Shown: in pieces, positions 37,045-62,608 of the stretch
How the letters are laid out: each line of letters begins with the position of its first letter
Numbering within the stretch: position 1 is the stretch's first letter
Virus record (IMG/VR): IMGVR_UViG_3300040806_003461
Span: 16,662-80,661 of that record
DNA: 64,000 nt
Source: a virus
Strand: one strand, 5' to 3'
The notes under the pieces: model-generated
Told to the model about the DNA's origin: nothing
Database searches by the model: none
The model's input: the letters and a program-made list of their open reading frames with translations, nothing else
Program-made: the position numbers and the translations under genes

Positions 37045-37045
37045 T

Positions 37046-41246: not shown

Positions 41247-41255
41247 TACAAATAC

Positions 41256-42020: not shown

Positions 42021-42029
42021 AATATAATC

Positions 42030-42581: not shown

Positions 42582-42593
42582 ATTTCCTCCTTT

Positions 42594-43812: not shown

Positions 43813-44314
43813 GAGAACCTCTACCTTTAATTTCGCTATTCATTATAGGTTGAAAATGTTGGATTGACGCATCCTCAATAATAGGAGCAATACTCAGATC
43901 GCCATACTCAACCGTATCAATATATTGTATCACAACATCCATTGAATGTAAACCATTTTCTTTTAGATATTCTCGATACTTGCGGCCTGATACTTCGTGA
44001 TGTTCATCAGGACGGCGAAAAGAGCGAGTATGATTACATTGACGTAAATGAATAGACATTGTCTTTCCATCCGTCTTACCGACATACAGGATTTTTCCTG
44101 TTTTCTTTTCAACCCAACGATAGATGCCTTTTGCATAGTTTGCAGCAATGCGGTTTCCATCTTTAATGTGTGGAGTTAAAAGATCAGTTTCAAAACCTGT
44201 GTCGGTCCGTGAAAGACGGATTTCTCCATAAGTTTTTGCTTCAGTCCAATAGTCTTCAATTTCGTTAAAGACAGTCTGTTCTATAATTGCAGCAAGTGAT
44301 TGTAACTTAGACAT
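43799..44314 (-). CDS. GIY-YIG nuclease
   Basis: KGIYRW...ILYVGKT...R..H...IE...PIMN. Confidence 0.75.
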   Translation of the reverse strand: MSKLQSLAAIIEQTVFNEIEDYWTEAKTYGEIRLSRTDTGFETDLLTPHIKDGNRIAANYAKGIYRWVEKKTGKILYVGKTDGKTMSIHLRQCNHTRSFRRPDEHHEVSGRKYREYLKENGLHSMDVVIQYIDTVEYGDLSIAPIIEDASIQHFQPIMNSEIKGRGSRDEV

Positions 44315-46348: not shown

Positions 46349-47557
46349 CTAAACCTTGCGGAATATCAACGACGAATTTGCTCCGCCAAACCCAAAGGAA
46401 TTTGACATCACTGTGGTCAGTTCCGCGTCAACACTTTGACGGACAAGAGGATAATCCTCAAAACCTTCGTCGGTTTCTTGAAGGTTTGCCGTGCCAGCAA
46501 TAAAGTTTTTATTCATCATAATGATTGAATAGATTGCTTCCTGAACACCTGCTGCGCCGATACCGTGTCCTGTTAGAGACTTTGTAGAACTAATTGGTGG
46601 TATATTGTCCGGACCAAAGGCTGATCTAATGGCCTGTAGTTCCTTTGTATCACCCACTGGTGTCCCAGTTGCGTGCGCATTAATATAGTCAATTTCTGGC
46701 CAATTGGGTTTCATTGCTTTTTGCATACAACGAACAGCACCTTCGCCAGATGGATGCGCCATATCATATCCGTCCGAGGTTGCGCCATAACCGATAATTT
46801 CACAATAGATCTTTGCGCCTCGAGCAATTGCTGTATCGTAATCCTCAAGGATCAAACAGCCACTACCTTCTCCAGGAACGAATCCATCTCGGTTTTTATC
46901 AAACGGACGTGATGCCGCGGTAGGATTGTCATTATACTTTGAAGATAAAGCCATTAAAGCATCGAGCATTGCAGCAATACTATAATGATTAGTTTCAGCA
47001 CCGCCAACAAGCATACGATCTTGATAACCGTTGGCAATGGTTCTAAATCCTTCACCAATACAGTGGCCGCTTGAAGAACAAGCTGAAGAGATTGTAAACC
47101 CTTCACCATAAATCTTAAGAGCTTTTGTAAGATTTGCAGAAGTAGTAGAGTTCATAATCTTAAACACAATAGTTGGTTCTCGATGAACTCCTTTACGAAC
47201 ATAAACGTCTTGCGCATATTGTTGAAACTCAGAAGATGAAGTACCCGATCCAAAATACAAGCCAGTATCTGGGTTGCTTACTTCATTATCAGTAAGTCCT
47301 GCATCTTCAATTGCTGAAAGACAAGACAAATAACCCATTGCTGCTGTAGGACCCATCCAACGATAGTGTTGTCGGTCTACAACGTCAACCGGTTTAAAGT
47401 CGCACATGCCAGCAATATTACATCGCATGTCTACAATTGCGTAATCAGGATTATGTTTAATTCCTGAGTTACCTTCTCTTAGGTTTTTTTCTACAGTTTC
47501 AAGATCATTACCGATTGGGGATCTAATACCGATCCCCGTGACGACAACTCTACGCAC
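46349..47557 (-). CDS. fabB: Beta-ketoacyl-ACP synthase I (FabB)
   Basis: RRVVVTGIG, SACSSS catalytic Cys, YINAHATGT, KSLTGH, SNSFGFGG. Confidence 0.9.
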   Translation of the reverse strand: MRRVVVTGIGIRSPIGNDLETVEKNLREGNSGIKHNPDYAIVDMRCNIAGMCDFKPVDVVDRQHYRWMGPTAAMGYLSCLSAIEDAGLTDNEVSNPDTGLYFGSGTSSSEFQQYAQDVYVRKGVHREPTIVFKIMNSTTSANLTKALKIYGEGFTISSACSSSGHCIGEGFRTIANGYQDRMLVGGAETNHYSIAAMLDALMALSSKYNDNPTAASRPFDKNRDGFVPGEGSGCLILEDYDTAIARGAKIYCEIIGYGATSDGYDMAHPSGEGAVRCMQKAMKPNWPEIDYINAHATGTPVGDTKELQAIRSAFGPDNIPPISSTKSLTGHGIGAAGVQEAIYSIIMMNKNFIAGTANLQETDEGFEDYPLVRQSVDAELTTVMSNSFGFGGANSSLIFRKV

Positions 47558-48167: not shown

Positions 48168-48230
48168 ATACTATCTAAAGTTCGTAGCAATGTCAACAAC
48201 TTTTTTCACAAATTATGAAATTATTTCATA
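48168..48230 (-). promoter_or_regulatory. Early promoter cassette 4 with palindrome TATGAAATTATTTCATA
   Basis: TTGACA-17-TAGTAT; inverted repeat at 48214-48230. Confidence 0.7.
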
Positions 48231-48505
48231 TTTTTTTCTCGAGCTGCGTCCTCGGCCTCAATAACTCCTCTGAGCGAAGCAATAAGTTCTTCCGCGAGTT
48301 CAACCTGTCTTAAAGTAATTCTATGAGGAGTGTTAGGAAACAAGAACGGTAGAAATGCGTGGGTATAACCTGTAATCGCATTTACCAATCCAAATGTACT
48401 CAATTTGATAGCAAACCACATATGCTCAAAATATCCAGAACGAACTTCTTGTAAGTGCTCAGTATTAATCAGATATCCATATCTGCCTAAATTACCAAAC
48501 TTCAT
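48221..48505 (-). CDS. DUF6356-like small membrane-associated protein, paralog 2
   Basis: HLQEVRSGYFEH...HAFLPFLF. Confidence 0.6.
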   Translation of the reverse strand: MKFGNLGRYGYLINTEHLQEVRSGYFEHMWFAIKLSTFGLVNAITGYTHAFLPFLFPNTPHRITLRQVELAEELIASLRGVIEAEDAAREKNMK

Positions 48506-48506
48506 T

Positions 48507-48719
48507 TCATACCTCGTGGTGCTCAAACGTTTCGTTTACCAAGCTCGCCAGTTTCTTCGCCGCATTCATAGATGCTTTCTCCAAAGCAAATGGGAATAGG
48601 GCATGGATTGAACTTGTTACGAATACTGCTACAGACCAAATGACCATGTTTAGGCCGATCTTAATGTGGCCGAAGTATCCAGTATTTGCCTTATTTAAAT
48701 GTTGAGTTAGTGTAGTCAT
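48507..48719 (-). CDS. DUF6356-like small membrane-associated protein, paralog 1
   Basis: HLNKANTGYFGH...IHALFPF; strong SD AGGAGG. Confidence 0.65.
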   Translation of the reverse strand: MTTLTQHLNKANTGYFGHIKIGLNMVIWSVAVFVTSSIHALFPFALEKASMNAAKKLASLVNETFEHHEV

Positions 48720-48747
48720 AAGCGCATCCTCCTTTTGTGTGCGATGT

Positions 48748-48755
48748 TATTTATA
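48748..48755 (-). promoter_or_regulatory. Late promoter TATAAATA
   Basis: Exact consensus 29 nt upstream of 48719. Confidence 0.65.
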
Positions 48756-49410
48756 CATACCATGGAGTAAAAGAATAAACCGGCAAAGCAGGATCCCGGC
48801 AATTCAACACCATGTAATTGAACCAAGATGTTTTTCCTGCTTCAACTTTTCTTGTAAACTTTATACGAGACATTAGATAGTTAGTATCAAACGCACTCCA
48901 TAACAGTCCGTACTTACCTTTCGTATATGATACGTTTTTCTTTTCAAAATATAAATCATAATACTTGTCACGAAACTTTTGAATAAACTGTTCGTTATCT
49001 GGATCAATGTATGTGAACACGATTTGTTTCGTATAATGGGATAGCGTTTTGAGGCAAAGCATTACCTCACAGATATCCATATGGGTAAAGACACTATTCG
49101 CAAATACAATGTCATAATATTGTGGAATAAATGGAAATTTTTCTTTAGGATTGCCGTCAGGATTGTAGTGCTCGTGATAATAATCCCAATGGATTGTTGA
49201 AACGCCAGGGTTTTCTTTTTCGCATAATCGTAATGCTTCTGTGCTTACATCAAGACAAGTATAATTTTCTGGTTTAATTTTGCCTTCGCTTGAAGCAATT
49301 AGATTACCTCGGTTGCCGCCAAAGTCTAAAATAGTCTTATCTTCATAATCGTCGACAATCTGTGTAAAAATATCAAACACATTTGCCTTTCTAAATATCG
49401 AAGAGTTCAC
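48751..49410 (-). CDS. Class I SAM-dependent methyltransferase
   Basis: ILDFGGNRG, CLDVS, YDIVFANSVFTHM. Confidence 0.85.
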   Translation of the reverse strand: MNSSIFRKANVFDIFTQIVDDYEDKTILDFGGNRGNLIASSEGKIKPENYTCLDVSTEALRLCEKENPGVSTIHWDYYHEHYNPDGNPKEKFPFIPQYYDIVFANSVFTHMDICEVMLCLKTLSHYTKQIVFTYIDPDNEQFIQKFRDKYYDLYFEKKNVSYTKGKYGLLWSAFDTNYLMSRIKFTRKVEAGKTSWFNYMVLNCRDPALPVYSFTPWYV

Positions 49411-49897
49411 TTTCTTTACCTTTAATCATTTCCAACACCTCATCATAATCCATATCATCAATTGTAAAGCGGCACATAATACGCGTATCGTCAGTTTTAA
49501 CGCCGTGCAATTCTTGTACGTTTAACATAGCGCATTTGTAATATATATTATATTTATCATCAAACGTAACAGGACCTTCACCATTTAAAATAATATTGAT
49601 AGCAACAGTTGCGCCAACATCACGATGAGAATTTAAATCTGAATGCGCAGCCTGTCTATAATATCGCGGTTTAACTCGAGTCCCAATCATATGCGATAAT
49701 CTGTTTGCGATTGAATGCGCAAGATCGCAATCTACCATATCGTCAAGACGTATTACATCCATCTCTTCAAGGGTACGAGTAATTGTTCCGTTGGATGCAG
49801 TATACTTTTTAGCTCGATGAAGATTGTCGTAAAACTCATCTTTAAGATCTTCGACCAATTGTTTAGATATCGGCAAATGCGTTAGATATTTTTTCAT
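49391..49897 (-). CDS. Putative 2OG-Fe(II) oxygenase (DSBH fold)
   Basis: HRD...AINI...LHGV...R facial triad pattern. Confidence 0.65.
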   Translation of the reverse strand: MKKYLTHLPISKQLVEDLKDEFYDNLHRAKKYTASNGTITRTLEEMDVIRLDDMVDCDLAHSIANRLSHMIGTRVKPRYYRQAAHSDLNSHRDVGATVAINIILNGEGPVTFDDKYNIYYKCAMLNVQELHGVKTDDTRIMCRFTIDDMDYDEVLEMIKGKESELFDI

Positions 49898-50478
49898 GGC
49901 AATATATCCGCCACAAAATGAATGCGATCTGTTCCGCTGGCGTTAAGTGCCGTATGGTAACCTTTATCGGTATGAGCAAAAGTCCATTCTCCTAATGGAA
50001 GATGGTATATCTCATCCTCAATAATCATAAGGCATCCTTCATCAGTTTGAATTGGATAATGAACTCGTGGTATAGGATCAATGTGCCAATTCATACAAGT
50101 ACGTGGTTTTGATTTGAGCAATCTTACACGGCCTATATTGAACCTTTTCTTTAATACATTATACATATCTTCAAATAGAGTACCGACAAACACATCGCAC
50201 AATTCCCAATCGTAAACTGAGCTAGGTTTCATTGGAATTCTAACGTCACCTTCCGGTGTATGGCGGATAAAGAAATCGCTTTTACCTTTGTCGGCAAAAA
50301 ATCCCGCTCCAAAATTAACATCATCAGTATATCCAGGAGCAGCATTTAAACAAATCTGTTCAGCACTTAATGGGTGTGAAGGTTGCAACCAAGATACCTC
50401 GCCTGTTCGTTTAAGTAATTCTATTTCATTCAATAAACCGCTAAATTTTTGGAGTGGCATTTTTTCAAAATATTTCAT
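49894..50478 (-). CDS. Aspartyl/asparaginyl beta-hydroxylase-like 2OG-Fe(II) oxygenase
   Basis: GRVRLL...WHID..RVHYPI...HTALN..DRIHFV. Confidence 0.8.
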   Translation of the reverse strand: MKYFEKMPLQKFSGLLNEIELLKRTGEVSWLQPSHPLSAEQICLNAAPGYTDDVNFGAGFFADKGKSDFFIRHTPEGDVRIPMKPSSVYDWELCDVFVGTLFEDMYNVLKKRFNIGRVRLLKSKPRTCMNWHIDPIPRVHYPIQTDEGCLMIIEDEIYHLPLGEWTFAHTDKGYHTALNASGTDRIHFVADILP

Positions 50479-52007
50479 AGTCCTAAAAAGCTTTCTACTT
50501 TATCATAATAACTTCTTTGCATATACGCTTTAGCGCGTTCTTTAACTGCAGGATCTTCAAACAATTGCGTAAACGTCATCTTACGTAATTCTGAAAATTC
50601 ATACCCAAGGCATTGATAAAACATAAGGAAAAAAGTTGCTACCTTAATATCGTCAATGAATTCGGCTTGTAATTTTTTAGTATACTCAACAGCCTCAACA
50701 CTGGTCCAATCGTCGCGGATCCAACGTTTTGTATCAGGCTCAACATAAAAACCGTATTCCTCGTGCCTTATAGATAATTCTGATGCTGTACCTAATTCCA
50801 ATGGGCTAAACGAATACGAATCAAATAGATCTGAGTTTTTAAATAACTCTTTTGTCCATACATCCATTGTTTCTTCATTGTCGTGTGGCAATCCTGTAAT
50901 AAAACTACCATACACACTCAGCTCTTGATTGAATACTTCCTTTGAGCGGCGGATTGTTTCAAAGATCTTATCTTTACTACAACCTTTTCCAATAGCTTTT
51001 GCCGCGTCAGGATTTAAACTTTCAATGCCTAAGAACCACGCACAGCAATTAATTCGCTTCAGATAATCAAGTTGCTCAGGATATCTTACAATTAAATCAA
51101 TACGGATAAATGCTGAAAACTGTAATTGCTCAGGAAGATTCAATTCTTCAATCGCTTCGGCAATTGCCTGCAGCTTAACTGTTTGCTCATTAAATGTATC
51201 GTCAATGATTACGTATTTGGTTGTTCCGTATAGATCATAATTTTGTTGTAGCTCGTGTTTGATCTTTTCTTTTTCTCGAAGGAACGATAAGTCGCCTTTC
51301 TTTTTACCGATTAATGGATACGCACAGAATTTACATTTAAAAATACAACCTCGGCCGAACTCAATTCCCATTGCGTCTTCAGGATTCCAAAAATCCTCAG
51401 GCACATAATTGATTTGCGAGTTTCTAAAATCAAACTGATTTCCTTTTTGGTCAAAATCAATTACCTTCGGACTTGAACCATACGCAATATTGTAATTAAG
51501 GCGTGTTCCGTTTTTTAAATGGTCAGTAATATGCTCAGCCATTGCTTCACCCATACCAACAACATAATAGTCAATACAGTCCGCAACTTCTTTTTCTTGC
51601 GCGCGATGAGCATTCATCATTCCGCCATAAACAGTCTTAACACCTTTGGCACGGATATAGTCTGTCATCTGTTTAATATCTTCATCCTGTGTCGGCCATC
51701 GCCACAGAATATTTTTTCGAGCACCGTCTCGAGTATGCCGTTTTGTATAAACATCATCGCCGCGTCTCATAAACAACGTAGAACTAAATCCACACCATAA
51801 CGTATTTTCACCAATGAGTTTATCAAGCAACTCTTCCATTCTACCGTTCTTAATCCAATGGGTAAAGTTGTTTAATACAAACACACTATACCCAAGGTTA
51901 CGCATATGTGACGCAATCTTATAACCGCCAACAGCACGTGCTACCTGAAAGATAGGATCGCTGCCTTCAGTCATAATGATAATGTCATATGGTTTATCTA
52001 TTTTCAT
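50475..52007 (-). CDS. Cobalamin-dependent radical SAM enzyme
   Basis: N-terminal B12-binding-like domain (GFSST, YGG, VVGMGE), RGCIFKCKFC, DDTFN, GIES, ITGLP. Confidence 0.85.
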   Translation of the reverse strand: MKIDKPYDIIIMTEGSDPIFQVARAVGGYKIASHMRNLGYSVFVLNNFTHWIKNGRMEELLDKLIGENTLWCGFSSTLFMRRGDDVYTKRHTRDGARKNILWRWPTQDEDIKQMTDYIRAKGVKTVYGGMMNAHRAQEKEVADCIDYYVVGMGEAMAEHITDHLKNGTRLNYNIAYGSSPKVIDFDQKGNQFDFRNSQINYVPEDFWNPEDAMGIEFGRGCIFKCKFCAYPLIGKKKGDLSFLREKEKIKHELQQNYDLYGTTKYVIIDDTFNEQTVKLQAIAEAIEELNLPEQLQFSAFIRIDLIVRYPEQLDYLKRINCCAWFLGIESLNPDAAKAIGKGCSKDKIFETIRRSKEVFNQELSVYGSFITGLPHDNEETMDVWTKELFKNSDLFDSYSFSPLELGTASELSIRHEEYGFYVEPDTKRWIRDDWTSVEAVEYTKKLQAEFIDDIKVATFFLMFYQCLGYEFSELRKMTFTQLFEDPAVKERAKAYMQRSYYDKVESFLGL

Positions 52008-52008
52008 T

Positions 52009-52779
52009 TTAACCTTTTCTTGGATTTTTAAAATCTACAGGAGTGCCATCACGGCCAGTATACCAAAGCCATCCCCAATCATCAACAACGACCTGGTCCT
52101 TTGTATTAAACCAATCGTCATACACGCAAGAATCGCCTTTTACCCAAAGACAATTGTTTTCATCTACCTTCCATTCGCAATGGAATATGTTTCCAAGGAC
52201 CGTTGCATTTTTTGGTTGCTTAGTTAATGCCGCAATGACGTCAAATTTAGAACGGAATTTATGCATAATAGCATTTACTCCAATTTCAGTCATTCCCCAT
52301 ATTGTTATAACAGTTGCACCACGATCAACGAATGCTTCAATAATATCAAACGTGACAGGCTCAGATCCAACTAAAAATACTTTATCTTTTAAGTTAAGAT
52401 CTTTAAAGCCTTTTGTTCTCATCACAGCTAACGCTTGCTTCGGCGTTAAGTGCGTATGTGTATATTTATGGGCTATCTGCACATAACGATATGGGTTGAA
52501 CTTTTCAAGGTCAACAGTTGCTCCGGCCATTAAACCTGGAATTGTTTGGGCAAACAATGCGCCTGCTCTTTGTGGATTCAAACAAGTATAGATTACTGAA
52601 TTGCCAGTAATACCTTGCGTTTCAATAGCAGCGTGAGAATTTGCTATTGATTTATACGGAGGTTGAAATATTTCCTTAGGCTCTCCAGATGAACCACTTG
52701 TTTTAATTACAATCCCTTTCTCGGCGGCATCACGGAAATAATCCTCATCATAATTATCGTACCAAGTTCTTAACGGCAT
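52009..52779 (-). CDS. Minimal AMP-binding (ANL family) adenylating enzyme
   Basis: TSGSSGEPK (A3), WGMTE (A5), WFNTKD (A7), YTGRDG (A8); about 256 aa. Confidence 0.75.
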   Translation of the reverse strand: MPLRTWYDNYDEDYFRDAAEKGIVIKTSGSSGEPKEIFQPPYKSIANSHAAIETQGITGNSVIYTCLNPQRAGALFAQTIPGLMAGATVDLEKFNPYRYVQIAHKYTHTHLTPKQALAVMRTKGFKDLNLKDKVFLVGSEPVTFDIIEAFVDRGATVITIWGMTEIGVNAIMHKFRSKFDVIAALTKQPKNATVLGNIFHCEWKVDENNCLWVKGDSCVYDDWFNTKDQVVVDDWGWLWYTGRDGTPVDFKNPRKG

Positions 52780-52783
52780 ATAT

Positions 52784-53953
52784 TCACCTAAAGTAATTAA
52801 AACCAAATTCACGGTCTACGTATCGCAATACGTGATGACCCATAAATCTTTCGGTTATTGTTTTGAACATCTGATCTTCCTGATCTGCTACATATCTTTG
52901 TAATACATCAGTTTCTTTTAAATTATTTGAGGCTCGGTCTTTTGCCCAATCCCAAAATTCATTTTCATATATTGATCCACCGTGATATATCAAATTAATG
53001 AGATCTTCAACAGCACGGTAATTTAATACGCACAACTCGTTTGCTTCATCTTCATTAATTTCGCCTCTAATGTAATCCGATAAAATTTGAGTATTTTTAA
53101 CAGCCATATAAAGTGAGTTAGCACTCATAGGCTCAAAGAATACCGCTCTGTTACCATTCTTGAGCATACGTCCGTTGACTGTCTTTTTACAATAATATGG
53201 TTTAATTGGAAATGTTCTGAAGTCCTCAATATCATCCTCGGTCGCATTCGTGATACGAATAAGTTCTTCAATTGCCATTTTCTTATCGGCAAAATTATTA
53301 TTGTATAGCAATCCGTGTGAGGTGCGATGCTGCAACGGAATTACAAACATCCATCCATACTTATGAGCTACGTGACGAGTAAATCCAAAGTCAGAAGGTT
53401 CAGGATCGTCGTATACCAATGCCGAGTTTAAAATTAAATCACATTCTTTATAATCAGTAAAGTCTTGAGGTCTGCCTCGACAATCAATCACATAGTCAAA
53501 AACGCATAGCTCTTTGTTGATTGTTAATGCACAACCTGCGCTATCCCACATTGGATGGTCACCAACCTCTCCTTCAAGTAATGTATAATTTGGATAGAGT
53601 TTTTGTAATCTGTCTAAACCCATCTTTGCAAAATCACGGGCATCAAAATGAACGGCATGATAACCAGTTTGAAATGGAAAGATAATATCCTTTTCACGCC
53701 AATCAATATAATGCGTACCATATTTTGTCGTGCTGTTTAATTCCTTAGCCTCTGTGGCAAATATAAAGTCAAATGCTTGCCCAATCGCAAAGGTTACTTC
53801 TGAGGTTGTGCTTTCTCCTACGCCAAGAATTGGAATGTTTGGATCAAAAACATGAGTAACTTCACAGTCAATACCACGGTTTTTAAAATCTTTAAGAATA
53901 CAGCCGGTGGTTAAAATGCCTGCGCTGCCTGCTCCTAAGATTGCGATTTTCAT
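52784..53953 (-). CDS. Flavin-dependent halogenase (tryptophan halogenase family)
   Basis: GAGSAG, GVGEST, conserved Lys (TTKYG), GWMFVIPL, FFEPMSA. Confidence 0.8.
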   Translation of the reverse strand: MKIAILGAGSAGILTTGCILKDFKNRGIDCEVTHVFDPNIPILGVGESTTSEVTFAIGQAFDFIFATEAKELNSTTKYGTHYIDWREKDIIFPFQTGYHAVHFDARDFAKMGLDRLQKLYPNYTLLEGEVGDHPMWDSAGCALTINKELCVFDYVIDCRGRPQDFTDYKECDLILNSALVYDDPEPSDFGFTRHVAHKYGWMFVIPLQHRTSHGLLYNNNFADKKMAIEELIRITNATEDDIEDFRTFPIKPYYCKKTVNGRMLKNGNRAVFFEPMSANSLYMAVKNTQILSDYIRGEINEDEANELCVLNYRAVEDLINLIYHGGSIYENEFWDWAKDRASNNLKETDVLQRYVADQEDQMFKTITERFMGHHVLRYVDREFGFNYFR

Positions 53954-54477
53954 GCTTCACCTCTAACTTTCAAATACTTTTCTTGATTTAATAACCAAAT
54001 ATTTTGTTCCACACCGCGTACCTGTTCTTTACTAACATGACTAACGATACCATTCTTTTCGAGAATATAATATAAGCGATTTAGTCTAAGCATTGAACCG
54101 CTTGCATCGTTTTCGGTATTTGTTGTAATGTATATAGGTTCTCTATTAACAATATCAATCGCTAAAGGCAAATGGTATTTGAACATCCAACAATTCATAT
54201 GGTTACGGCTTAACCCACCAGGAATTGAATATAACTGGCATCCTCGGTACAATGCCCTATACCCATCTTTGAATTTATGTAATCCACTCACTCCAACAAT
54301 TTTATCTTCATCGTACGTGGCAAACCAGCAACCGCCACCTTTAATTGTTACAAAGAAATTCATACGCTCGAGTGAATCGTTGTTTTTAAACCCACGTTCT
54401 TTACAAGCATGGACAAATTCCATGAGATCTTCGTTTGCTTCAAATAAAATTTCTGTTCTGAATTCTGGCTTTATCAT
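53950..54477 (-). CDS. GNAT-like acyltransferase
   Basis: WFATYDEDKIVGVSGLH..YRALYRG, IYITTN beta-bulge pattern. Confidence 0.5.
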   Translation of the reverse strand: MIKPEFRTEILFEANEDLMEFVHACKERGFKNNDSLERMNFFVTIKGGGCWFATYDEDKIVGVSGLHKFKDGYRALYRGCQLYSIPGGLSRNHMNCWMFKYHLPLAIDIVNREPIYITTNTENDASGSMLRLNRLYYILEKNGIVSHVSKEQVRGVEQNIWLLNQEKYLKVRGEA

Positions 54478-55721
54478 GTGAATTTAAATTCCAAGTCCTT
54501 CCATACGGTTGTAGATCCAAACATTGCTGCCAATCTTTCAGGTTCCTTTGTAATCTCAAAGGTTTCAAATCGGTCAAGCAACGCATTCGTAATAACATCT
54601 AAATATTTTTTAACTAAAAAATCGCCAGTACAATGGTGCGGTCCATAAGCAAGCGTAACAGGATACGGCTCGTCGTCTCGTTCTAATTTAAATTCTAATG
54701 GATCCTTGTAATATTTTGGATCTCGGTTTGCGCCATACGTATATAAAAGAATACGCCCATTTTGGTCAAACTTGTATCCGTGATAGTCCATTGTTTCTGT
54801 AATATCTCGAATACCGCCTTTAAGAGGAGCAAGACGTAATACTTCTCGAGTAAAGTTTTTAACAAGCTCGCGATCCTTTTGAATTCTTTTCACAATATCA
54901 GGATGGTTTGCTAAACACATTACAAGATACTGATATAAAGACAAAGCAAACGTTGGAATCACGACAGTCCATAACGACTGAATAAACATATATCCCATCA
55001 GCTTTGGATTATCGTTATATTCCCATTGCTTATCGCTTAGGTTATATGCCATATTGACCATCGTATCTTCGTTACGACCTTCAAGCATATAATAATCAAG
55101 AGTATCGTTTACAGCCTGAGAAAACATTTTATAGAATTCAGTTGTTTCAGCAACCGGCTTATCGTAATCAAAATCTGGATTATAGTTTGAGAATACGTTG
55201 CCAGGTCTCATCCATTCGTGAAAGCCATCTTTTACTTGTTCTTCAGTTACGTCAAGCTCATCCCACGGAAATTCAATAGTCTGAATTTGCGTATCAGTTG
55301 CGATGCGTCCGATTACATCATAAGACAAAAATGGTTTGCCTTTTTCAATTGTATCTAATGAGTCATTAACATTCTTAGTAAAAATATCAAGGAAATCGTC
55401 AGCACGACGGCGAATCCATTCAAGGCTGTGCTTTTTTGCTAAATGATGATGAGGACCTTCTCGTAAAGTCAACGCATAACCTGCACGCCATATACCACCT
55501 AATGGAGTTGGATCAAACGGTGCAGGTGAAGTTTTTGCTAAGCTGAACGCTTCATTCATTTTGGATGCTTCTTTTAAGCGATCCATTGAAAAGATTATCC
55601 AATGCTTATACGTTGGGTGCCAAAAGAATCCACGCGGTTCGTTTTCAAAAAGAAACTCCGCGTGTTCATCCATTTTATAAAGGAACTCTGAACGAGTTAT
55701 ATCAAAATCAGTTTTTCTCAT
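54474..55721 (-). CDS. Cytochrome P450
   Basis: ExxR (EVLR), ANRDP, FKLER, heme ligand LAYGPHHCTG; 415 aa. Confidence 0.88.
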   Translation of the reverse strand: MRKTDFDITRSEFLYKMDEHAEFLFENEPRGFFWHPTYKHWIIFSMDRLKEASKMNEAFSLAKTSPAPFDPTPLGGIWRAGYALTLREGPHHHLAKKHSLEWIRRRADDFLDIFTKNVNDSLDTIEKGKPFLSYDVIGRIATDTQIQTIEFPWDELDVTEEQVKDGFHEWMRPGNVFSNYNPDFDYDKPVAETTEFYKMFSQAVNDTLDYYMLEGRNEDTMVNMAYNLSDKQWEYNDNPKLMGYMFIQSLWTVVIPTFALSLYQYLVMCLANHPDIVKRIQKDRELVKNFTREVLRLAPLKGGIRDITETMDYHGYKFDQNGRILLYTYGANRDPKYYKDPLEFKLERDDEPYPVTLAYGPHHCTGDFLVKKYLDVITNALLDRFETFEITKEPERLAAMFGSTTVWKDLEFKFT

Positions 55722-55738
55722 AATATAATAAAAGTTGA

Positions 55739-56050
55739 TTAAAGGTCGGCAGTCTCAGGGGAAAAAGAAATCGCCCAACCGTTACCGGTCATTGTATCTT
55801 TAACTGTTTGAGAAACACCTGCCATGAGCGTTTTATATTCAGCCGCGGCGGCATCAGTAAAAGTATTTTGAACTGTCCATACTCCATCAGCAACTGATAC
55901 CTCAGTAGTACGGCCGCCATCAACTTCTGCAGTTGCAAGAAAATCCTGTACATTTGTTGGCAACAATTCGCGCACATAACCCATTACCTGTGCTCTCGTT
56001 GCGTCAGGCATTGTAGCTGGGGGTGTAACTGTAACTGTTTGTGTAGGCAT
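55739..56050 (-). CDS. Small hypothetical protein heading the tailoring operon
   Basis: Strong SD GGAGG; AATAAATA late-like box at 56073-56080; Thr/Ala/Val-rich. Confidence 0.7.
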   Translation of the reverse strand: MPTQTVTVTPPATMPDATRAQVMGYVRELLPTNVQDFLATAEVDGGRTTEVSVADGVWTVQNTFTDAAAAEYKTLMAGVSQTVKDTMTGNGWAISFSPETADL

Positions 56051-56075: not shown

Positions 56076-57833
56076 TTATTCTTCAAAGTACAGGCTAAAG
56101 TTTTTAGAAATAAAGTGTTTTATGACAGCCTTGTCTTCAATGTTTCTTGCGTTATATTTGTTCCTTGCGGCATACCATGCTTGATGACCTATTTCAAAAG
56201 ATTTTATATTATCATAGTTATGTTGAGAATGCCAATGTGCTGCAAGTCTGAATACAGGAACGTTGTTCTTAATTGTTTTATAGGAAAAGATTGTTTCGTT
56301 ATCGTACCCAAAAGATGCTCTTATATTACTAGGATACATGCTAAACTCATCTTCTTTAAGTTCTAACATTGTATCAAGCACTTCGTCAATATCTCCAAAG
56401 AAATCAAGTTGTTCCATTGATTTTTTATTGGCTATAATAACGCCAGTGTTATACGCGTAGTTTTCGTTTTCAATATCGTCGTTCGTTAGTAGTGCATGTG
56501 AATTCCAATACTTTGCTTGAGGATTACGAAAATCTTTATTATAGTTTACAAGATATTCAGATGACTTGCCATCAATTTTTAATTCCGCGGCAGTATTATA
56601 AAAACAACAAAGAGCATGGCTACAAGGAACGTGGTCAAACGCATCGGCATAACTTAAAAACAAACAGTCAAAGTCAACATACATTACAAGGTCGTAATCT
56701 TTTGTTAGCTTTTCAGTTAACCAAATCTTATATAAATTGATTACGTCATATTCTGATAATTGCGGAAAGCGTTTATAGAATTGTTCGTATTCTTCATTAC
56801 GACCGATATGAACATAATCAGCACCGATGTGTTTAGCATAATCTTTATGATTATCTAATATTTTTTCTCGGTATTTGTTTAATTGTCTTTTTGCTATTGC
56901 GCTTTTGTTTTCAGGATTATCTGAATAACCTTTTGGATTATCGAGTCTTTCCTCAGGAATATCAATATGTAAAGAAAAAATCAGTTTCGTTTTATCTTTG
57001 AAAAACCTACCAAATTGTTTATTGATAATATGTAGGATCTTTCCTTCGTAACCTTCTGCTGGTAACTCCGAATAGATTTTATGCCATTCCTCATCCATTA
57101 GTACGTATGGGATGTTGTATTCTTCAAGGATGTATGAGAATATGCTTTCGTTATTTGGATAATAACTTAGCATAATTGTACCGAAGATTGCGTCGGTTGA
57201 TAAAGCTTTATCTTTAATGTCTTCGAGCTTATTAATAATGGAAGGTAATCTATCAACAAACTGAATCTGTTTAATGTATTCAGATCTTGCTAACATAATG
57301 CCCGTATTCATTACGTGGTTATCCTTACCACCTAACAAATCTTTTGTGATATGATATTTAAGAGTAGGAGAACGTAATCCGATAACATCAAATAGCAAAT
57401 CCTGCTTGTCCTTGCCAATAATATCGTAATCTTGATCTCTAATATAAATGCCTTTGCTTAGATCTAATTCTTCAAATACGTTTTCGTCTGTATTAAATAC
57501 AACGTCCATATCAACGTACATTACTTCATCATATTCTTCAGCAAGGTTTGCCATCAAATGATGCTTATATAAATTGACCTTCGCAAATTCTAAATTTACA
57601 TCAACCTCAAAATCCTTCATCGTATTGCGATAGAAAATAAATTCAACGCCGATCTTTTCAGCATAATCTTTTTTGTTTTGTAGCAGTCGGTCAAAGTATT
57701 CTTCAATGCATTTCTGTTTGGCAATGTCAGCCTGACGAGTTGCCTTCCAATCAAGATCAACCGTTGCCTGACTTTTATTGACTTTTTCGCCACGATTAAT
57801 ATCGTCGTAAGTTGTAAATATTACTCGTTTCAT
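56076..57833 (-). CDS. Tandem two-domain GT-A glycosyltransferase
   Basis: Two homologous halves: NLYK...YVDMDV...NTGIM...NNESIFSY and NLYK...YVDFDC...NTGVI...DNETIFSY. Confidence 0.75.
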   Translation of the reverse strand: MKRVIFTTYDDINRGEKVNKSQATVDLDWKATRQADIAKQKCIEEYFDRLLQNKKDYAEKIGVEFIFYRNTMKDFEVDVNLEFAKVNLYKHHLMANLAEEYDEVMYVDMDVVFNTDENVFEELDLSKGIYIRDQDYDIIGKDKQDLLFDVIGLRSPTLKYHITKDLLGGKDNHVMNTGIMLARSEYIKQIQFVDRLPSIINKLEDIKDKALSTDAIFGTIMLSYYPNNESIFSYILEEYNIPYVLMDEEWHKIYSELPAEGYEGKILHIINKQFGRFFKDKTKLIFSLHIDIPEERLDNPKGYSDNPENKSAIAKRQLNKYREKILDNHKDYAKHIGADYVHIGRNEEYEQFYKRFPQLSEYDVINLYKIWLTEKLTKDYDLVMYVDFDCLFLSYADAFDHVPCSHALCCFYNTAAELKIDGKSSEYLVNYNKDFRNPQAKYWNSHALLTNDDIENENYAYNTGVIIANKKSMEQLDFFGDIDEVLDTMLELKEDEFSMYPSNIRASFGYDNETIFSYKTIKNNVPVFRLAAHWHSQHNYDNIKSFEIGHQAWYAARNKYNARNIEDKAVIKHFISKNFSLYFEE

Positions 57834-58495
57834 TTTCCTATTACCATATATCTTTCATATTTACCAGCATCAAGAGAACCTTTCCATTCAACCTTTCGAA
57901 GACCTAGCGAATCTACAAATTCATCAAGACTATTGTGTGTATTGATATGGGATTGGATTTCGTGATAGTTGTTACCTTGAAAACAGACTAAAGTATTCGG
58001 TGCTTTCATTCGGGTCATTAACAACAAATCTTCAGGCTCCATATGCTCACAGCTTGTATTAATAATTATATCACATTTTTGTATATTGTCAAATACCCAT
58101 TCTTCAGCATCTTCAATAATACAATAGGTTCGGTCGCTTTCCATTCCTTGAAATAACAGTTTAGCAAAACGTGCCGTCTCAGGATCAGAATCAACGTTAT
58201 GAATGTGCGGGTTTGTTTCTAATTGCTCTCGTAATAATAAACTGATTAATCCGTACCACGATCCAAGGACAGCAATGTTGTTAACCTTTTTATCTATGAA
58301 TGGCATTAGGTTATTAACCAACCATTCCTTTGAAGCAAATTGGTTTTCGTTTACTGAATTGATAATGTCGTGTATACGAAAAAGGTCAACGTCAGGATTC
58401 CATTTACTTTTTTCATAAAGATCGTCAATGGCATTCAGTGCATTTCTATAAAGCAATTCTCGGTAATTCATATTCGATTCCATTATACATATCAA
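57830..58495 (-). CDS. Class I methyltransferase-fold protein (probable start 58471)
   Basis: SKEWL, IAVLGSWYG, VDSDP, IINTSCEHM. Confidence 0.7.
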   Translation of the reverse strand: MICIMESNMNYRELLYRNALNAIDDLYEKSKWNPDVDLFRIHDIINSVNENQFASKEWLVNNLMPFIDKKVNNIAVLGSWYGLISLLLREQLETNPHIHNVDSDPETARFAKLLFQGMESDRTYCIIEDAEEWVFDNIQKCDIIINTSCEHMEPEDLLLMTRMKAPNTLVCFQGNNYHEIQSHINTHNSLDEFVDSLGLRKVEWKGSLDAGKYERYMVIGK

Positions 58496-59060
58496 TTGGT
58501 GCGATATAATTTTCGTTAGCTACACTGTTTACAATCCCGTCGGCAAACGTATCCAAAGCAAAACCTTCGTGAACGAGAAAGCGATCTATGCCTTTGTATT
58601 TTCGCATAAAGTAATCGCGGTTCGTCATAAAGTGATCCCATATATGAGCTTGCTGTTTTGCTGTCCACGTTATCACTGAGCTATTTATTTTTACGTCATA
58701 GGCATGTTTATCAAAATACATATCTTTTTTCCAATACGCATTGATAACTGTAAGATTATTCCATTTAATAAAATTAGATGGGTCTTCTTTAACATCCATA
58801 TCCAAATCAAAAAATAAACACTTGCCTTTAACTGGAAAATCTTTACTAAACATCGCAAGCTTATTCCACCAAAACCTTAAAGATGGTTTTTTGAGTATTG
58901 GAATAATATTGATTCTTGCATCAATATGTTGCTTGTTTTCAGTATAGCAATAAAAATCTGCGTTGGGATAATATTTAACTAATTGCTTATAAAGTCTATT
59001 TACATGTAAAGCGCTATACTTGTCGCCGTGTTTTACAAATATAATACTATCAGGTTGCAT
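58446..59060 (-). CDS. GT-A glycosyltransferase-like protein
   Basis: KHGDKYS..HVNRL, WWNKLAMF, LFFDLD, NSSV. Confidence 0.7.
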   Translation of the reverse strand: MQPDSIIFVKHGDKYSALHVNRLYKQLVKYYPNADFYCYTENKQHIDARINIIPILKKPSLRFWWNKLAMFSKDFPVKGKCLFFDLDMDVKEDPSNFIKWNNLTVINAYWKKDMYFDKHAYDVKINSSVITWTAKQQAHIWDHFMTNRDYFMRKYKGIDRFLVHEGFALDTFADGIVNSVANENYIAPIDMYNGIEYELPRIAL

Positions 59061-60114
59061 GGTATGCTCTTAACTGATGACGCTTTTTAATTCTATTACT
59101 ACAATTGCGTGCGCATTGTGGAACAGGGTTATCTCCTTCCATACTTGCTTGTAATTTTTTCGCAAACCATTCGCTTGTAATAATATCAGATAATGTAGTG
59201 TGAAATATGTTATACTTTTCTAAGTTCTGATTATAGTCATCAGCGTATATTTCGTGGCGTTCAATTTCACGTCCATATGTTTTATCAACTCTATTTTTAT
59301 AATGGGCATTCGCATGGAAACAGCAAGGCAATACTTGTCCATCAGGATTAATCACAACCTCGTTACGCGGCCTTGCCCAACGGCATTTGATTTCATACTC
59401 GTTTTCAGATATATCTGTTCCTGATATTTTTCCGTCAGGTAAAGATTCCTGGTCGGCTCTTTCAAACGTATCTTCGTTTCCATTCTCATCAATAAACCGA
59501 TCTACCCCATCTTGAGTATGGTCAAATCTATCTGATATAACAAACGTATGAATATCAGCGCCGTGTGCTTTAACTAATTCTTTGATCTGTTCTTTATAAT
59601 CTTGATTGTGTTTAAACAAAACGGTTTGAGAACGTACCTTTGCGTTTGTATTGCTCAATGTTTCCATATTAGATAATACACGATCTAACTCAGTAAATCG
59701 TCGATACTTTTGGTGCATTTCCTGATCTATTCCATCAACTGCAAACACGACCTCAAGTTGAGAACCGCAGTATACTCCTAGATCCCACCACCAATCGTCA
59801 TTACGAATACTACCATTTGTATCAATTGAAATAAAGCAAAAGTAATTGTTGTCCACAATATACTTACACATTTCAAATAGATCCTTTGCCATTACAGGAT
59901 CACCCCAAGTTCCACAGAATTTAAACTGATTAACCTTCTTTACTTCATCTGGAGGAAATGCTTTTTTGAATGTTTCAAGATCCCATTGGATTAACGGAAG
60001 CCAACCTTGTTTTCCTAAACCATTTTTATCGGTACGATGGCACTGAGGACAACCCGCATTGCAATACGTTGAAATATCAAGAAAAACCTTGATACCTTCT
60101 GGACTCCATAACAT
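59050..60114 (-). CDS. Radical SAM enzyme with SPASM/twitch domain
   Basis: CNAGCPQC, GTWGDP, TNGS, FAVDG; C-terminal C...DGQVLPCC...CARNC. Confidence 0.88.
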   Translation of the reverse strand: MLWSPEGIKVFLDISTYCNAGCPQCHRTDKNGLGKQGWLPLIQWDLETFKKAFPPDEVKKVNQFKFCGTWGDPVMAKDLFEMCKYIVDNNYFCFISIDTNGSIRNDDWWWDLGVYCGSQLEVVFAVDGIDQEMHQKYRRFTELDRVLSNMETLSNTNAKVRSQTVLFKHNQDYKEQIKELVKAHGADIHTFVISDRFDHTQDGVDRFIDENGNEDTFERADQESLPDGKISGTDISENEYEIKCRWARPRNEVVINPDGQVLPCCFHANAHYKNRVDKTYGREIERHEIYADDYNQNLEKYNIFHTTLSDIITSEWFAKKLQASMEGDNPVPQCARNCSNRIKKRHQLRAYHAT

Positions 60115-60121
60115 ATATCAC

Positions 60122-60649
60122 CTACTGCATTAAATATAAAACGGATAAACCCTCAAGAATTGTTTGAGATCTACGCAATGCTTTTTTCTGATCTGTTGTG
60201 GCCTTCTTCATCAACTCACTGTCAATTGCCCACATCTTAAAACCAAATACTGCATCTTTGTTTTTGTTGTTATTAACAATTATATCCCAAAATTTTGAAT
60301 GGTCAATAGAAAATTCAACAGTATCGGTTTTTCCTTCTTCGACCTTACTGATATTTTGATATGATTGTAAATTATGACGTTTCAGAACTTCAGATAAACG
60401 GATTTCAACTTCTTCATTAACAATCCGAGCAAAACGCTTACCGTCTGCTATACGCATCTCATCCGTAGCATTCATAATTTTTTCAACATCCCAACCGTCT
60501 GCCGCCAAAGCTTTATAGTCGGGATTGTGTTCGTTAGCAGGAATTACATATCCACGTATGCGATCTCCATCATTATATTCAACTCTGATTGTATTACATT
60601 CTTTGTTTATGTAATAGGCACGAGTTACCTTACCACTAAAATCTGCCAT
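60122..60649 (-). CDS. Putative fibre assembly chaperone, paralog of 62604..63164
   Basis: IPANEHNPDYKAL and FGFKMWAIDSE...KKALRRSQT align with the paralog. Confidence 0.6.
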   Translation of the reverse strand: MADFSGKVTRAYYINKECNTIRVEYNDGDRIRGYVIPANEHNPDYKALAADGWDVEKIMNATDEMRIADGKRFARIVNEEVEIRLSEVLKRHNLQSYQNISKVEEGKTDTVEFSIDHSKFWDIIVNNNKNKDAVFGFKMWAIDSELMKKATTDQKKALRRSQTILEGLSVLYLMQ

Positions 60650-60661: not shown

Positions 60662-62374
60662 TTATGCGCCGCCTTCCCATAATAGTCTGTAATATCCAGT
60701 TGCTTCAACGGTTGACTGGTCCTTTGAAAGTTGGAACGTAAATATTGACATGCCACCTGGATAAGTTCCTGGAGTTCGTAAATCTTCAATTACGAAATAT
60801 CTGTTAGTCCCACCTGTGCTGTCAATTCTATACCAAGTATTTAAACTCCAACCGCCTTGTATTGTACCTTGGCCAGTTCTTGAAGTACAACGAACGTACC
60901 AAGTACCAGTTGGGTTTACAGTATTACTCCAAGGTTGGAATCGGCTTGTCACTGTTACTCGAGTATCAGTATCATCAATGTATGCAATCTTGCCGTCGGT
61001 TCTGAACATCCACCCAAGCTCCATACCGTTGGATCCGGGTAAAGGTATATCTCCACTTACTTTTGGTTGTGAAACAGTACCTTCAAGTTGTCCTACTTCC
61101 TCTAAAATATCTACAACATCAACTGACACTGCGACGTTTCCTGCAGAAGTTGCGAACGTACAAGTAACTGTTTCGTTTTCAGTTCCTGCATCATTTGCCA
61201 ATGTGATTGATGTTGAGCCTGATGCACCACTGATTGTTACGCTGCCTGATAATTGTCCTGAGGAAAGATCGTCGGCTGTTATACCTGAAATGGTATAAGC
61301 AATTGCTCTACCATCCGGTACGTTGTTTGTATTAAGTGTAAATGTAACTGATTCGCCTTCGTTAACACTGCCTGATGGATTTGCTGATGCCGAGAACGTT
61401 TCTGTTTGGTCGGTTCCCGAAACATCACCACTATTAACAATTTTTAAATACCACGTATTCCTTGTGGTGACAGAGCCTGCAGGAACTTCTTGTGAATAAT
61501 ACGTATCATTAACTTGACGAGTCCTACGGTCAAATGAATTGTAATGAGTATCAGTCATACCTTGGCCGCTTACACGACCTTGTGTGCCATCTTGGTTTTC
61601 AATTTGATAACGAATCTGAGATCCTGACAATGAAACAATCGCATATCGCATATGGTATTGTAGCATAGAATTAAAATCAGCTTCAGTATATTGAACGATA
61701 TCGCCATTAGTATCAATTTTAAAAGGCAAGCTTGCTTGTACTGCACTTGAATTTTTAACATACAAATACCAAGTGTTTTCTGTTGCAGGTTGGTCAAGCG
61801 GGTTTTCAGGAATAGTACCTGTTCTTATTGAATCGTCAGAAATTGTATCGGAAAAGACAGGGTTTGCACTAACTAAAGTAAAACCTGTTTTTGTTGGATA
61901 GTCGTCATAAATTGCGTACTGTCCTGCGCCTGCATAGTTTCCTGAACCGGTTGGTGCAAACCATTCCGCAATTGTCGGCGCAATAAAAGTATCGTAAAAA
62001 TCTTGTCTTGTCATTGCGACAAATTCATTAGACGCATTTAGATATAAAGGATATGCAATATTTACGTTTGAATCATCCCACGTATTTGCAGGAGATGCCA
62101 CGGATTGATCCATAGTATCCCATACGGTATCAATTGCCTGTACGTCAGGCCCATCTGGAAATCCTGTATTAGTTGATGCTGCCGCACCTGCTTGATACCT
62201 ACGGTCAATCATTTGATTTAGATTACCGCTATTGGCAACCACACTAAGCGACACCGATGGATTTAAACTATATTGGTGAATTGCCTGTTCGCCGATTAAT
62301 TGCATCTCGGCTGCCGACATGATCTGAAACTCATTCTGACCATTCAGCTTTAGAACAGTTGAACGGACAGCCAT
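60662..62374 (-). CDS. Tail fibre / receptor-binding-like structural protein with Ig-like segment
   Basis: Ser/Thr/Gly-rich; SVNEGESVTFTLNTNNVPDG Ig-like repeat; ends ATGYYRLLWEGGA. Confidence 0.65.
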   Translation of the reverse strand: MAVRSTVLKLNGQNEFQIMSAAEMQLIGEQAIHQYSLNPSVSLSVVANSGNLNQMIDRRYQAGAAASTNTGFPDGPDVQAIDTVWDTMDQSVASPANTWDDSNVNIAYPLYLNASNEFVAMTRQDFYDTFIAPTIAEWFAPTGSGNYAGAGQYAIYDDYPTKTGFTLVSANPVFSDTISDDSIRTGTIPENPLDQPATENTWYLYVKNSSAVQASLPFKIDTNGDIVQYTEADFNSMLQYHMRYAIVSLSGSQIRYQIENQDGTQGRVSGQGMTDTHYNSFDRRTRQVNDTYYSQEVPAGSVTTRNTWYLKIVNSGDVSGTDQTETFSASANPSGSVNEGESVTFTLNTNNVPDGRAIAYTISGITADDLSSGQLSGSVTISGASGSTSITLANDAGTENETVTCTFATSAGNVAVSVDVVDILEEVGQLEGTVSQPKVSGDIPLPGSNGMELGWMFRTDGKIAYIDDTDTRVTVTSRFQPWSNTVNPTGTWYVRCTSRTGQGTIQGGWSLNTWYRIDSTGGTNRYFVIEDLRTPGTYPGGMSIFTFQLSKDQSTVEATGYYRLLWEGGA

Positions 62375-62600: not shown

Positions 62601-62608
62601 TATTTATA
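62601..62608 (-). promoter_or_regulatory. Late promoter TATAAATA
   Basis: Exact consensus upstream of 62562. Confidence 0.7.

Follow-up and report, generated by a model that had tools for sequence, protein, structure and literature searches.

A modular adenylating-enzyme and tailoring cassette in an estuarine T4-like phage, with a DUF6356 and mini-ANL pair shared with marine bacteria

Here we describe a gene cassette in the window, a 64-kb stretch that forms the last part of an 80.7-kb IMG/VR virus contig (IMGVR_UViG_3300040806_003461; completeness estimate, 38%). On the minus strand, eleven abutting genes (48221-56050) run from u103, encoding a 103-residue protein, through a cytochrome P450, a GNAT-fold protein, a short flavin-dependent halogenase, a truncated adenylating enzyme of the ANL type (mini-ANL), a class-B radical S-adenosylmethionine (SAM) enzyme, two cupin or cupin-like proteins and a methyltransferase to the second of two DUF6356 genes. 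Comparison with relatives revealed a wider modular cassette with a core of GNAT, DUF6356 and mini-ANL, of which this P450 operon is the most elaborate version. The unit is not phage-only, as some marine bacteria have the DUF6356-mini-ANL pair in their chromosomes. We tentatively propose that a tailored carboxylic acid is adenylated and then attached to an envelope or virion acceptor, a reading that we consider possible, at somewhat less than an even chance.

A preliminary description of this DNA had reported nine co-oriented genes, and all nine open reading frames (ORFs) were recovered on the minus strand at the positions it gave; the two DUF6356 genes (48221-48719) extend the cassette beyond the downstream end that it had drawn. 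Overlapping stop and start codons had been taken there as the sign of an operon. Close packing is, however, the norm across the whole window, so spacing alone is not evidence, and we therefore examined relatives for linkage. By tblastn, the set from the methyltransferase to the P450 recurs in ~18 viral contigs at 40-95% identity, and the P450 and radical-SAM queries each retrieve 15-18 IMG/VR contigs. The P450, halogenase, mini-ANL and radical-SAM genes are thus linked rather than scattered. Of the P450-type loci, only about half show the linkage expected for u103, four of the 18 lack the halogenase, and one lacks both cupins. The order of the cupins is swapped or inverted in some relatives. 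A single 683-residue ORF encodes the radical-SAM enzyme together with the 168-residue protein in eight loci (e.g., L003:9547-11598 (+); fusion ORF P0121), and these fusion loci have the two cupins in the opposite order from the window. The synteny, the fusion and the survival of the set through local rearrangements bear out the earlier view of a dedicated multi-enzyme unit. A megablast search of the region against GenBank phages gave no match, and a literature search for phage gene clusters with a P450 and a halogenase returned nothing relevant.

To place the operon in a wider setting, we turn to the mini-ANL, which has 116 short relatives and more than 100 viral loci. Clustering of ORFs over 83 loci revealed a shared plan, GNAT, DUF6356, a variable run and mini-ANL, with the GNAT gene no more than 8 kb from the mini-ANL in ~60 of 79 loci and DUF6356 near it in ~39 of 83. 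The variable run holds a class IV aminotransferase, small cupins related to the 168-residue protein, methyltransferase, radical-SAM, halogenase and GMP-reductase-like genes, while P450 and u103 are confined to the sub-clade of the window. The core therefore consists of a phage-specific GNAT, one or two DUF6356 proteins and the mini-ANL, and the tailoring genes, previously regarded as the core, are optional modules. The wider cassettes are flanked by fiber-like Mtd_N, MoxR/VWA, many SPASM radical-SAM, methyltransferase and sulfotransferase-like genes. We also observed, in L037, L044, L048, L050, L069, L076 and other loci, a full-length TctA permease (Pfam, 1.8e-86) adjoining a 350-residue protein with a signal peptide; together the permease and this binding protein look like a tripartite tricarboxylate-type importer, and they lie a few genes from the mini-ANL.

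The mini-ANL probably starts at the ATG at 52779, giving 256 residues; relatives have 255-256 residues and align from residue 12. Its AlphaFold2 (AF2) model (pLDDT 90) matched MenE and MatB in Foldseek (E 1e-15, TM 0.7). The protein is without the first ~150 residues of the ANL N-terminal domain and the entire C-terminal lid, ending 13 residues past the A8 hinge, and all 116 relatives are of 160-276 residues. The A3 P-loop, the A5 GMxE motif, the A7 Asp and the A8 Arg are kept, and S39, G40, G43, K46, G173, M174, E176, D239 and R254 are invariant or nearly so. Since the nucleotide-binding residues are invariant, the protein is predicted to be a working enzyme, not a remnant. A 227-residue mini-ANL query found no match by tblastn against 50,697 GenBank phages.

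Both DUF6356 proteins (PF19883) pass the Pfam gathering cut-off of 24.4 bits, with 32.4 and 40.3 bits. The first reaches a maximal 19-residue hydropathy of 1.73, and most members of the family have a hydrophobic helix. The alignment of the family has a conserved GY(F/W)xH...H(A/S)xxP pattern; a literature search on DUF6356 returned nothing relevant. The third core protein was assigned from its AF2 model (pLDDT 85), for which all Foldseek matches are GNATs (E 2e-5). VIA aligned 155 residues with 1yre at a Z of 11.8 and a root-mean-square deviation of 3.4, and 126 chains had a Z of at least 8, the listed ones being GNATs. No Pfam match was obtained for the protein of the window. Its family comprises more than 356 metagenomic clusters, none bearing a name that tells a function. 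The GNAT profile was not found in three whole carrier genomes, a genome-contig scan with a close GNAT alignment gave no match, and a broad alignment of GNATs contained no conserved stretch that could be used. A predicted complex of the GNAT-fold protein and the mini-ANL scored 0.00, a value that, with controls not run, weighs neither way.

We then looked for counterparts in cells. Scanning genome contigs with the alignment of mini-ANLs revealed 60 bacterial homologues, carried by Pelagibacteraceae (one in a complete chromosome), SAR116, Methylophilaceae (OM43) and marine gammaproteobacterial metagenome-assembled genomes (MAGs). In Pelagibacter genomes the block SDR, DUF6356, mini-ANL and GSDH is conserved, and an ORF with the DUF6356 motif lies 157-214 nucleotides upstream of the ANL gene in at least 35 of 61 bacterial loci. 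Depending on the lineage, the neighbors are SDR and GSDH; guaB-guaA; GT4-DAGK with a YdhR-like gene; M20 and MOSC; or an epimerase with an alcohol dehydrogenase. The pair is not a core feature of SAR11: it was present in one of 121 sampled Pelagibacteraceae genomes (the query genome) and is a subclade trait. In a maximum-likelihood tree of 120 mini-ANLs, phage and bacterial clades interleave, and well-supported branches force at least five switches between them; one phage pair is sister to OM43, while the clade of the window lies inside a phage-only branch. Because the tree is unrooted and came from a short search, we claim no direction of transfer.

Three observations on the bacterial loci stand apart. 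A gene of the IMPDH/GMP-reductase family adjoins the mini-ANL in both bacteria and phages, as guaB-guaA in the bacterial loci L150, L156, L166 and L170 and as a 343-residue GMP-reductase-like gene in ~30 phage loci (L060, L084, L103 and L113, for example); this neighbor could be chance or a hint to the substrate. L173, a 106-kb locus from a gammaproteobacterial MAG, carries SPASM, GNAT, DUF6356, AT4, cupin, QueC-like, methyltransferase, GuaC-like, ANL and TctA genes, and L158, from a Bdellovibrionales MAG, carries GNAT, AT4 and a GuaC-like gene beside the ANL. Both could be genuine cellular copies or else phage contigs that were binned into MAGs. In the SAR116 loci L147-L149 and L174, a 101-residue YdhR-like protein (dimeric alpha+beta barrel) replaces DUF6356 directly upstream of the mini-ANL, and its size and fold class recall what u103 might be.

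Turning to the tailoring enzymes, the preliminary description had seen catalytic motifs in every gene. Pfam cut-offs are passed by the P450, the halogenase, the mini-ANL (AMP-binding), the radical-SAM enzyme, the 194-residue cupin and the methyltransferase; the GNAT assignment stands by predicted fold only, and the 168-residue protein, described as a second 2-oxoglutarate (2OG) oxygenase, is unproven as such. The halogenase (106 bits; phrog_2928, 6.6e-65) keeps the GxGxxG flavin site as GAGSAG, and the Lys of its TTKYG falls in the catalytic Lys column of 9luq and BrvH (6frl), its closest solved relatives. Its WxWxIP motif is degenerate (WMFVIP). At 389 residues compared with ~500-550, it is without the C-terminal substrate module, alignments stopping near chain residue 430, so free tryptophan is not implied as the substrate.

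The radical-SAM enzyme (61.7 bits) has an invariant CxxxCxxC at C221/C225/C228. Its nearest families are PhpK, TIGR04072, HpnJ and MgmA, and its nearest structures are MgmA (9ccb) and CysS (9n1b), all B12-dependent; no Pfam B12-binding match was obtained at E 0.01, and alignments to the B12-dependent relatives begin near residue 106-146. It is probably a C-methyltransferase. Among GenBank phages, it had a single 25% partial match, in Streptomyces phage SF3. The 194-residue cupin (PF05118, cut-off 22.6 bits) has an invariant facial triad, H132-x-D134...H175, and a profile match to the caprazamycin beta-hydroxylase Cpz10 (7v4f, 1.1e-8). In the 168-residue protein, H91-x-D93...H131 is nearly invariant; it had no Pfam or PDB match, and hhalign related it to the 194-residue cupin with a probability of 2.6%. 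The methyltransferase scores 30.9 bits, compared with a cut-off of 30.

The P450 (45.2 bits, cut-off 22.8) has both the heme-thiolate Cys motif (YGPHHCTG) and ExxR (EVLR). By eye, without a structural alignment, no (A/G)Gx(D/E)T acid-alcohol pair is recognizable in the I-helix, the region reading QSLWTVVIPTFA; this suggests atypical chemistry or the use of peroxide, while membership of the superfamily still holds. Its clade comprises ~45 clusters at 66% identity or more, all metagenomic and on viral contigs where the context is known. A wide gap separates the clade from the closest cellular P450 (E 1e-13), with 25-36% identity over part of the length to the nearest cellular P450s; the closest solved structures are P450tol (7v40) and CYP153. 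No ferredoxin gene was found in the contig. The earlier statement that P450s are rare in phages holds: tblastn gave no match in 50,697 GenBank phage records, and the only P450 phage named in PMC9405906 is Mycobacterium phage Adler.

u103 had no Pfam, PHROG or NCBIfam match, and a search of 1.84 billion proteins gave a family of 29 representatives, nearly all of ~100 residues. The C-terminal GW.I.F.PETADL is invariant in near relatives, and the PETADL tail is lost in distant ones. When present, u103 is always directly upstream of the P450 and was never found elsewhere; in P450-type loci without it, a SPASM enzyme or a methyltransferase-like gene takes this place. Only about half of the P450-type cassettes carry it and the ~80 wider ones all lack it, so it is not a general substrate. 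Because u103 is restricted to the neighborhood of the P450 and absent from half of these cassettes, we regard it as a companion of the P450, not a general precursor, and it may be a helper or substrate of that enzyme. Two further ideas were set aside. An ABM/Dabb fold was suggested by weak ABM matches in two of 22 u103 members (best E 0.045), with no PDB match, and is kept as a lead only; a 729-residue match (P0379), which would have made u103 an 11-fold repeat domain, is an unconvincing low-complexity tandem repeat.

Late-promoter motifs accompany the cassette. An exact T4-type late promoter, TATAAATA, precedes the first DUF6356 gene by 28 nucleotides and is also found ahead of its orthologues in L003, L004, L010 and L011. 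Of the strong Shine-Dalgarno sequence and late-like box described earlier ahead of u103, the former is there; the box reads AATAAATA in the window, which is not the exact T4 late motif, though TATAAATA is exact at this position in five of seven relatives. The count of late motifs in the window is not above chance, and six of the seven sites are just upstream of genes. Scans for sigma-70 promoters and terminators gave no usable operon boundaries.

Near-identical DNA was found in 15 metagenome runs of estuary samples, and cassette contigs came from three estuary metatranscriptome libraries, with u103 covered in all three; DNA carry-over is possible, and since these contigs are short, gaps and between-gene differences in depth are not interpretable. 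Contigs from three RNA-library runs and one DNA run agree with the window on one side of 48190-48231 and diverge on the other, pointing to a population breakpoint immediately downstream of the second DUF6356 gene. In DNA run X2 we observed a joint of 53456 to 48219.

Table 1. Features of the cassette and of the genes next to it (positions in the window)
Feature	Coordinates	Strand	Assignment or evidence
u103, 103 residues	55739..56050	-	no known family
Cytochrome P450	54474..55721	-	Pfam p450 7.5e-12
GNAT-fold protein, 175 residues	53950..54477	-	AF2 model with Foldseek/VIA
Short flavin-dependent halogenase, 389 residues	52784..53953	-	Pfam Trp_halogenase 2.7e-30
mini-ANL adenylating enzyme, 256-267 residues	52009..52812	-	Pfam AMP-binding 2.5e-12
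Class-B (B12-type) radical-SAM enzyme, 510 residues	50475..52007	-	Pfam Radical_SAM 1.2e-16
2OG/Fe(II) cupin hydroxylase (PF05118), 194 residues	49894..50478	-	Asp_Arg_Hydrox 25.5 bits
Small cupin-like protein, 168 residues, unproven oxygenase	49391..49897	-	H-x-D...H pattern
Class I SAM methyltransferase	48751..49410	-	Methyltransf_12 4.6e-7
T4-type late promoter TATAAATA	48748..48755	-	28 nucleotides upstream of first DUF6356 gene
First DUF6356, small hydrophobic protein, 70 residues	48507..48719	-	Pfam DUF6356 1.1e-7
Second DUF6356, paralogue of the first, 101 residues	48221..48526	-	Pfam DUF6356 3.6e-10
Triad: 585-residue two-domain glycosyltransferase-like protein, 221-residue methyltransferase-like protein, 204-residue glycosyltransferase	56076..59060	-	
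Radical-SAM/SPASM enzyme, cassette membership uncertain	59050..60114	-	SPASM 1.6e-7, phrog_21308 4.5e-27

The DNA around the cassette (G+C ~38%) has T4-like baseplate and tail genes, and its source is an uncultured estuarine phage. The baseplate wedge protein is closest to the Sinorhizobium phiM12/phiN3 group (38% identity), not to HTVC008M, and a MoxR-like neighbor gene was uninformative for the phage lineage. Upstream, a glycosyltransferase gene abuts u103. It belongs to a triad (Table 1) with a weak GT34 match (1.1e-3) and a phrog_1962 glycosyltransferase match (9e-13), which adjoins the cassette in eight loci; it is co-oriented where it lies upstream and inverted where it lies downstream. 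Further along lie two paralogous pairs on the minus strand: 60122-60649 and 62604-63164, encoding 175 and 186 residues with a common ...F(G/K)FK(M/L)WA(I/L)... motif, and 60662-62374 and 63177-63968, encoding fiber-like proteins of 570 and 263 residues that end in ...TGYY....EGGA. Neither pair had a family match, and they may be fiber-plus-chaperone modules.

On the downstream side, a FabF-like ketosynthase (46349-47557, minus strand; Pfam ketoacyl-synt 3.9e-41, along with the C-terminal domain) is situated 1.2 kb from the cassette and is linked to it only in the two closest relatives, L016 and L018. The preliminary description, in stating that no nonribosomal peptide synthetase (NRPS) or polyketide synthase (PKS) backbone or acyl carrier protein was visible, had overlooked this gene; the carrier protein is indeed missing, with no PF00550 match in the 80-kb contig. 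Still further downstream (34263-44314, minus strand) are a dCMP deaminase, a thymidylate-synthase-like hydroxymethylase, a peroxiredoxin and a nucleotidyltransferase-kinase fusion, a set absent beside most related cassettes.

Taken together, these results can be read as one pathway, because of the radical-SAM-cupin fusion, the persistence of the GNAT/DUF6356/ANL trio in changing surroundings and the occurrence of the DUF6356-ANL pair in cells as well. An adenylating enzyme and a transferase fold in a contig with no carrier protein point to activation of a carboxylic acid and its transfer to an acceptor. We hypothesize that a small carboxylic acid, probably an aromatic one or one derived from an amino acid, is oxidized and methylated, and in most variants halogenated, and that this tailoring would be carried out by the P450 (with u103), the BrvH-like halogenase, the radical-SAM methylase with the small cupin, the 2OG/Fe hydroxylase and the SAM methyltransferase. 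The mini-ANL would adenylate the tailored acid with DUF6356 as its obligate membrane partner, and the GNAT-fold protein would hand the acyl group to an amine or hydroxyl of the acceptor. The late promoters, the glycosyltransferase and fiber-like neighbors and the variability between phages argue for a surface acceptor on the virion or host envelope, the likeliest being a glycan or protein of the virion fibers or of that envelope.

Several findings weigh against this proposal. Phage genes are close-packed everywhere, so co-orientation proves nothing by itself, and the neighbors of the bacterial DUF6356-ANL pair vary by lineage and indicate no single pathway. The mini-ANL is without the C-terminal subdomain and the A10 lysine that canonical ANLs need for adenylation. 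For the GNAT-fold family, Pfam matches are marginal (seven of 32 members, best E 0.045), and the alignment reveals no clear Q/RxxGxG/A acyl-CoA loop, the loop at 89-93 of the model being of low confidence; the acyl donor may not be a coenzyme A (CoA) thioester. In addition, several of the nearest relatives modify proteins (MgmA, the Asp/Asn hydroxylases and protein acetyltransferases), which fits a protein substrate equally well.

A bolder form of the activate-and-attach proposal, which we consider unlikely, is that DUF6356 and the mini-ANL form a hitherto unrecognized two-part ligase in which DUF6356 replaces the lid or is the acyl acceptor or carrier. This ligase would have been exchanged between marine bacteria (a SAR11 subclade, OM43 and SAR116) and large phages, which would couple the pair to a private GNAT and swappable modules so as to write a halogenated acyl mark, open to diversification, on fibers or the host surface, altering recognition or excluding rival phages.

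The modification of a protein or peptide, either u103 or nearby fiber-like proteins, as in peptides made by ribosomes and modified after translation (RiPPs) or in a virion modification, would give each enzyme a role: the halogenase would act on Trp, the cupin on Asp and the radical-SAM enzyme on C-H bonds, while the P450 would form cross-links and the GNAT would cap an amine. The invariant C terminus of u103 offers Trp, Phe, Pro, Thr and Asp as targets, the gene is always beside the P450 when present, it follows a late promoter and a strong Shine-Dalgarno sequence, and contigs cover it in all three RNA libraries. The closest solved radical-SAM enzyme, MgmA, is a protein glutamine methylase, PF05118 is an Asp/Asn hydroxylase family, protein acetyltransferases are among the top GNAT fold matches, and SPASM radical-SAM enzymes are plentiful in these islands. 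We nevertheless find this doubtful. About half of the P450-type cassettes and all of the wider GNAT/ANL ones are without u103, its distant relatives lose the PETADL tail, and it resembles a folded domain of ~100 residues rather than a leader or core peptide; no RiPP recognition element (RRE), leader peptidase or protease, or exporter was seen among the annotated genes. The adenylating enzyme and, in relatives, the aminotransferase are better suited to small-molecule chemistry, and Cpz10, the best structure match of the cupin, works on a small nucleoside intermediate. We therefore favor a small acyl unit attached to an acceptor over a protein substrate.

If the product were small, it could also be released at lysis as a free halogenated, oxidized and N-acylated molecule serving as a signal, toxin or inhibitor of competitors. 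The enzyme set is typical of natural-product tailoring, its variable modules recall the diversification of biosynthetic gene clusters, and the TctA permease and binding protein of related islands could import a carboxylate precursor. The halogenase is BrvH-like, and BrvH-like halogenases act on free indoles. A diffusible metabolite is all the same rather improbable in our view: neither an exporter nor a self-resistance gene is apparent, the late timing and the location amid fiber and glycosyltransferase genes are better suited to a structural role, and a costly product would presumably bring a lytic phage little gain in a short late period. Still less probable is the remodeling of membrane lipids or aminolipids, in which the ANL would activate a fatty acid, the GNAT would make an N-acyl amino acid as OlsB and FeeM do, the P450, an LpxO/OlsC-like cupin, the radical-SAM enzyme and the methyltransferase would tailor the acyl chain, and DUF6356 would be a membrane anchor. 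The top NCBIfam matches of the ANL are long-chain fatty-acid-CoA ligases, matches of the P450 include the CYP152 fatty-acid peroxygenase and CYP153, and those of the radical-SAM enzyme include the TIGR04072 lipid-biosynthesis family, HpnJ and HpnR; PF05118 includes LpxO and OlsC, FeeM and LasI appear at Z ~10 among the fold matches of the GNAT, DUF6356 is hydrophobic, and the FabF-like ketosynthase is nearby. However, these family matches are all weak, far under family cut-offs, dozens of ordinary GNATs match as well as FeeM and LasI do, linkage of the ketosynthase is confined to the closest relatives, and neither a flavin halogenase nor a class IV aminotransferase would be expected for fatty-acyl chains.

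Finally, the genes may share no pathway and simply be independent auxiliary genes co-inherited as a block of a hypervariable island. Whole-genome synteny is usual in T4-like phages, whose genes are closely packed throughout, the content of such islands is a known patchwork (PMC7029224), and the contexts of the cellular ANL pair are heterogeneous. This we consider very improbable, given the radical-SAM-cupin fusion, the company of GNAT, DUF6356 and ANL across very different flanks and phage lineages, the survival of the set through internal rearrangements and the retention of the DUF6356-ANL pair in bacteria too.

The present analysis adds the identity of DUF6356, the fusion of the radical-SAM and cupin genes, counts for the modular architecture, the late promoters and a chromosomal DUF6356-mini-ANL pair in marine bacteria with an interleaved phylogeny. 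The cassette would rank among the richest small-molecule enzyme sets known in a tailed phage, it adds a whole clade of phage P450s to the one phage P450 reported before, and its core of mini-ANL, DUF6356 and GNAT is present in hundreds of marine viral sequences. The identity of the product would reveal the purpose of the "radical-SAM cassettes" in host-recognition islands, whether phages chemically decorate themselves or their hosts, and how a lid-less adenylating enzyme works.

Among known systems, the host recognition cluster of pelagimyophages and cyanomyophages combines fiber genes and glycosyltransferases with radical-SAM cassettes, transport genes and lipopolysaccharide-type genes, and a role in surface alteration or host recognition has been proposed for it (Zaragoza-Solas et al. 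2020, PMC7029224). The window shows a like mix of genes in the island of a marine T4-like myophage. A term search of that paper found no P450, halogenase, adenylating enzyme or DUF6356, and the GNAT-DUF6356-mini-ANL core is not described in it. With the ANL acid-CoA ligases and amide-bond synthetases (MenE, MatB and McbA), the mini-ANL shares the fold of the large N-terminal domain and the A3, A5, A7 and A8 motifs, but it has only 227-267 residues and a DUF6356 partner instead of a carrier domain. RiPP and natural-product clusters use these enzyme families too and vary their tailoring steps in the same modular way; the cassette differs from them in being without a leader/core precursor, RRE, protease, NRPS, PKS or carrier protein, and in being carried by lytic-type T4-like phages with T4 late promoters.

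The viral halogenases and P450s invite a closer comparison. Like VirX1 (6qgm) and BrvH (6frl), the halogenase of the window has GxGxxG and the catalytic Lys, and its cyanophage and pelagiphage homologues, at 26-36% identity, are annotated as tryptophan halogenases; it differs from VirX1 and BrvH in its length of 389 residues, its missing C-terminal module, its WMFVIP motif and its place in a multi-enzyme cassette instead of as a lone gene. The P450s of giant viruses and of Mycobacterium phage Adler (PMC9405906) likewise have no redox partner in the available genome sequence. The P450 of the window differs from these in lacking the I-helix pair, in forming a separate, metagenome-only clade and in being encoded inside a conserved operon.

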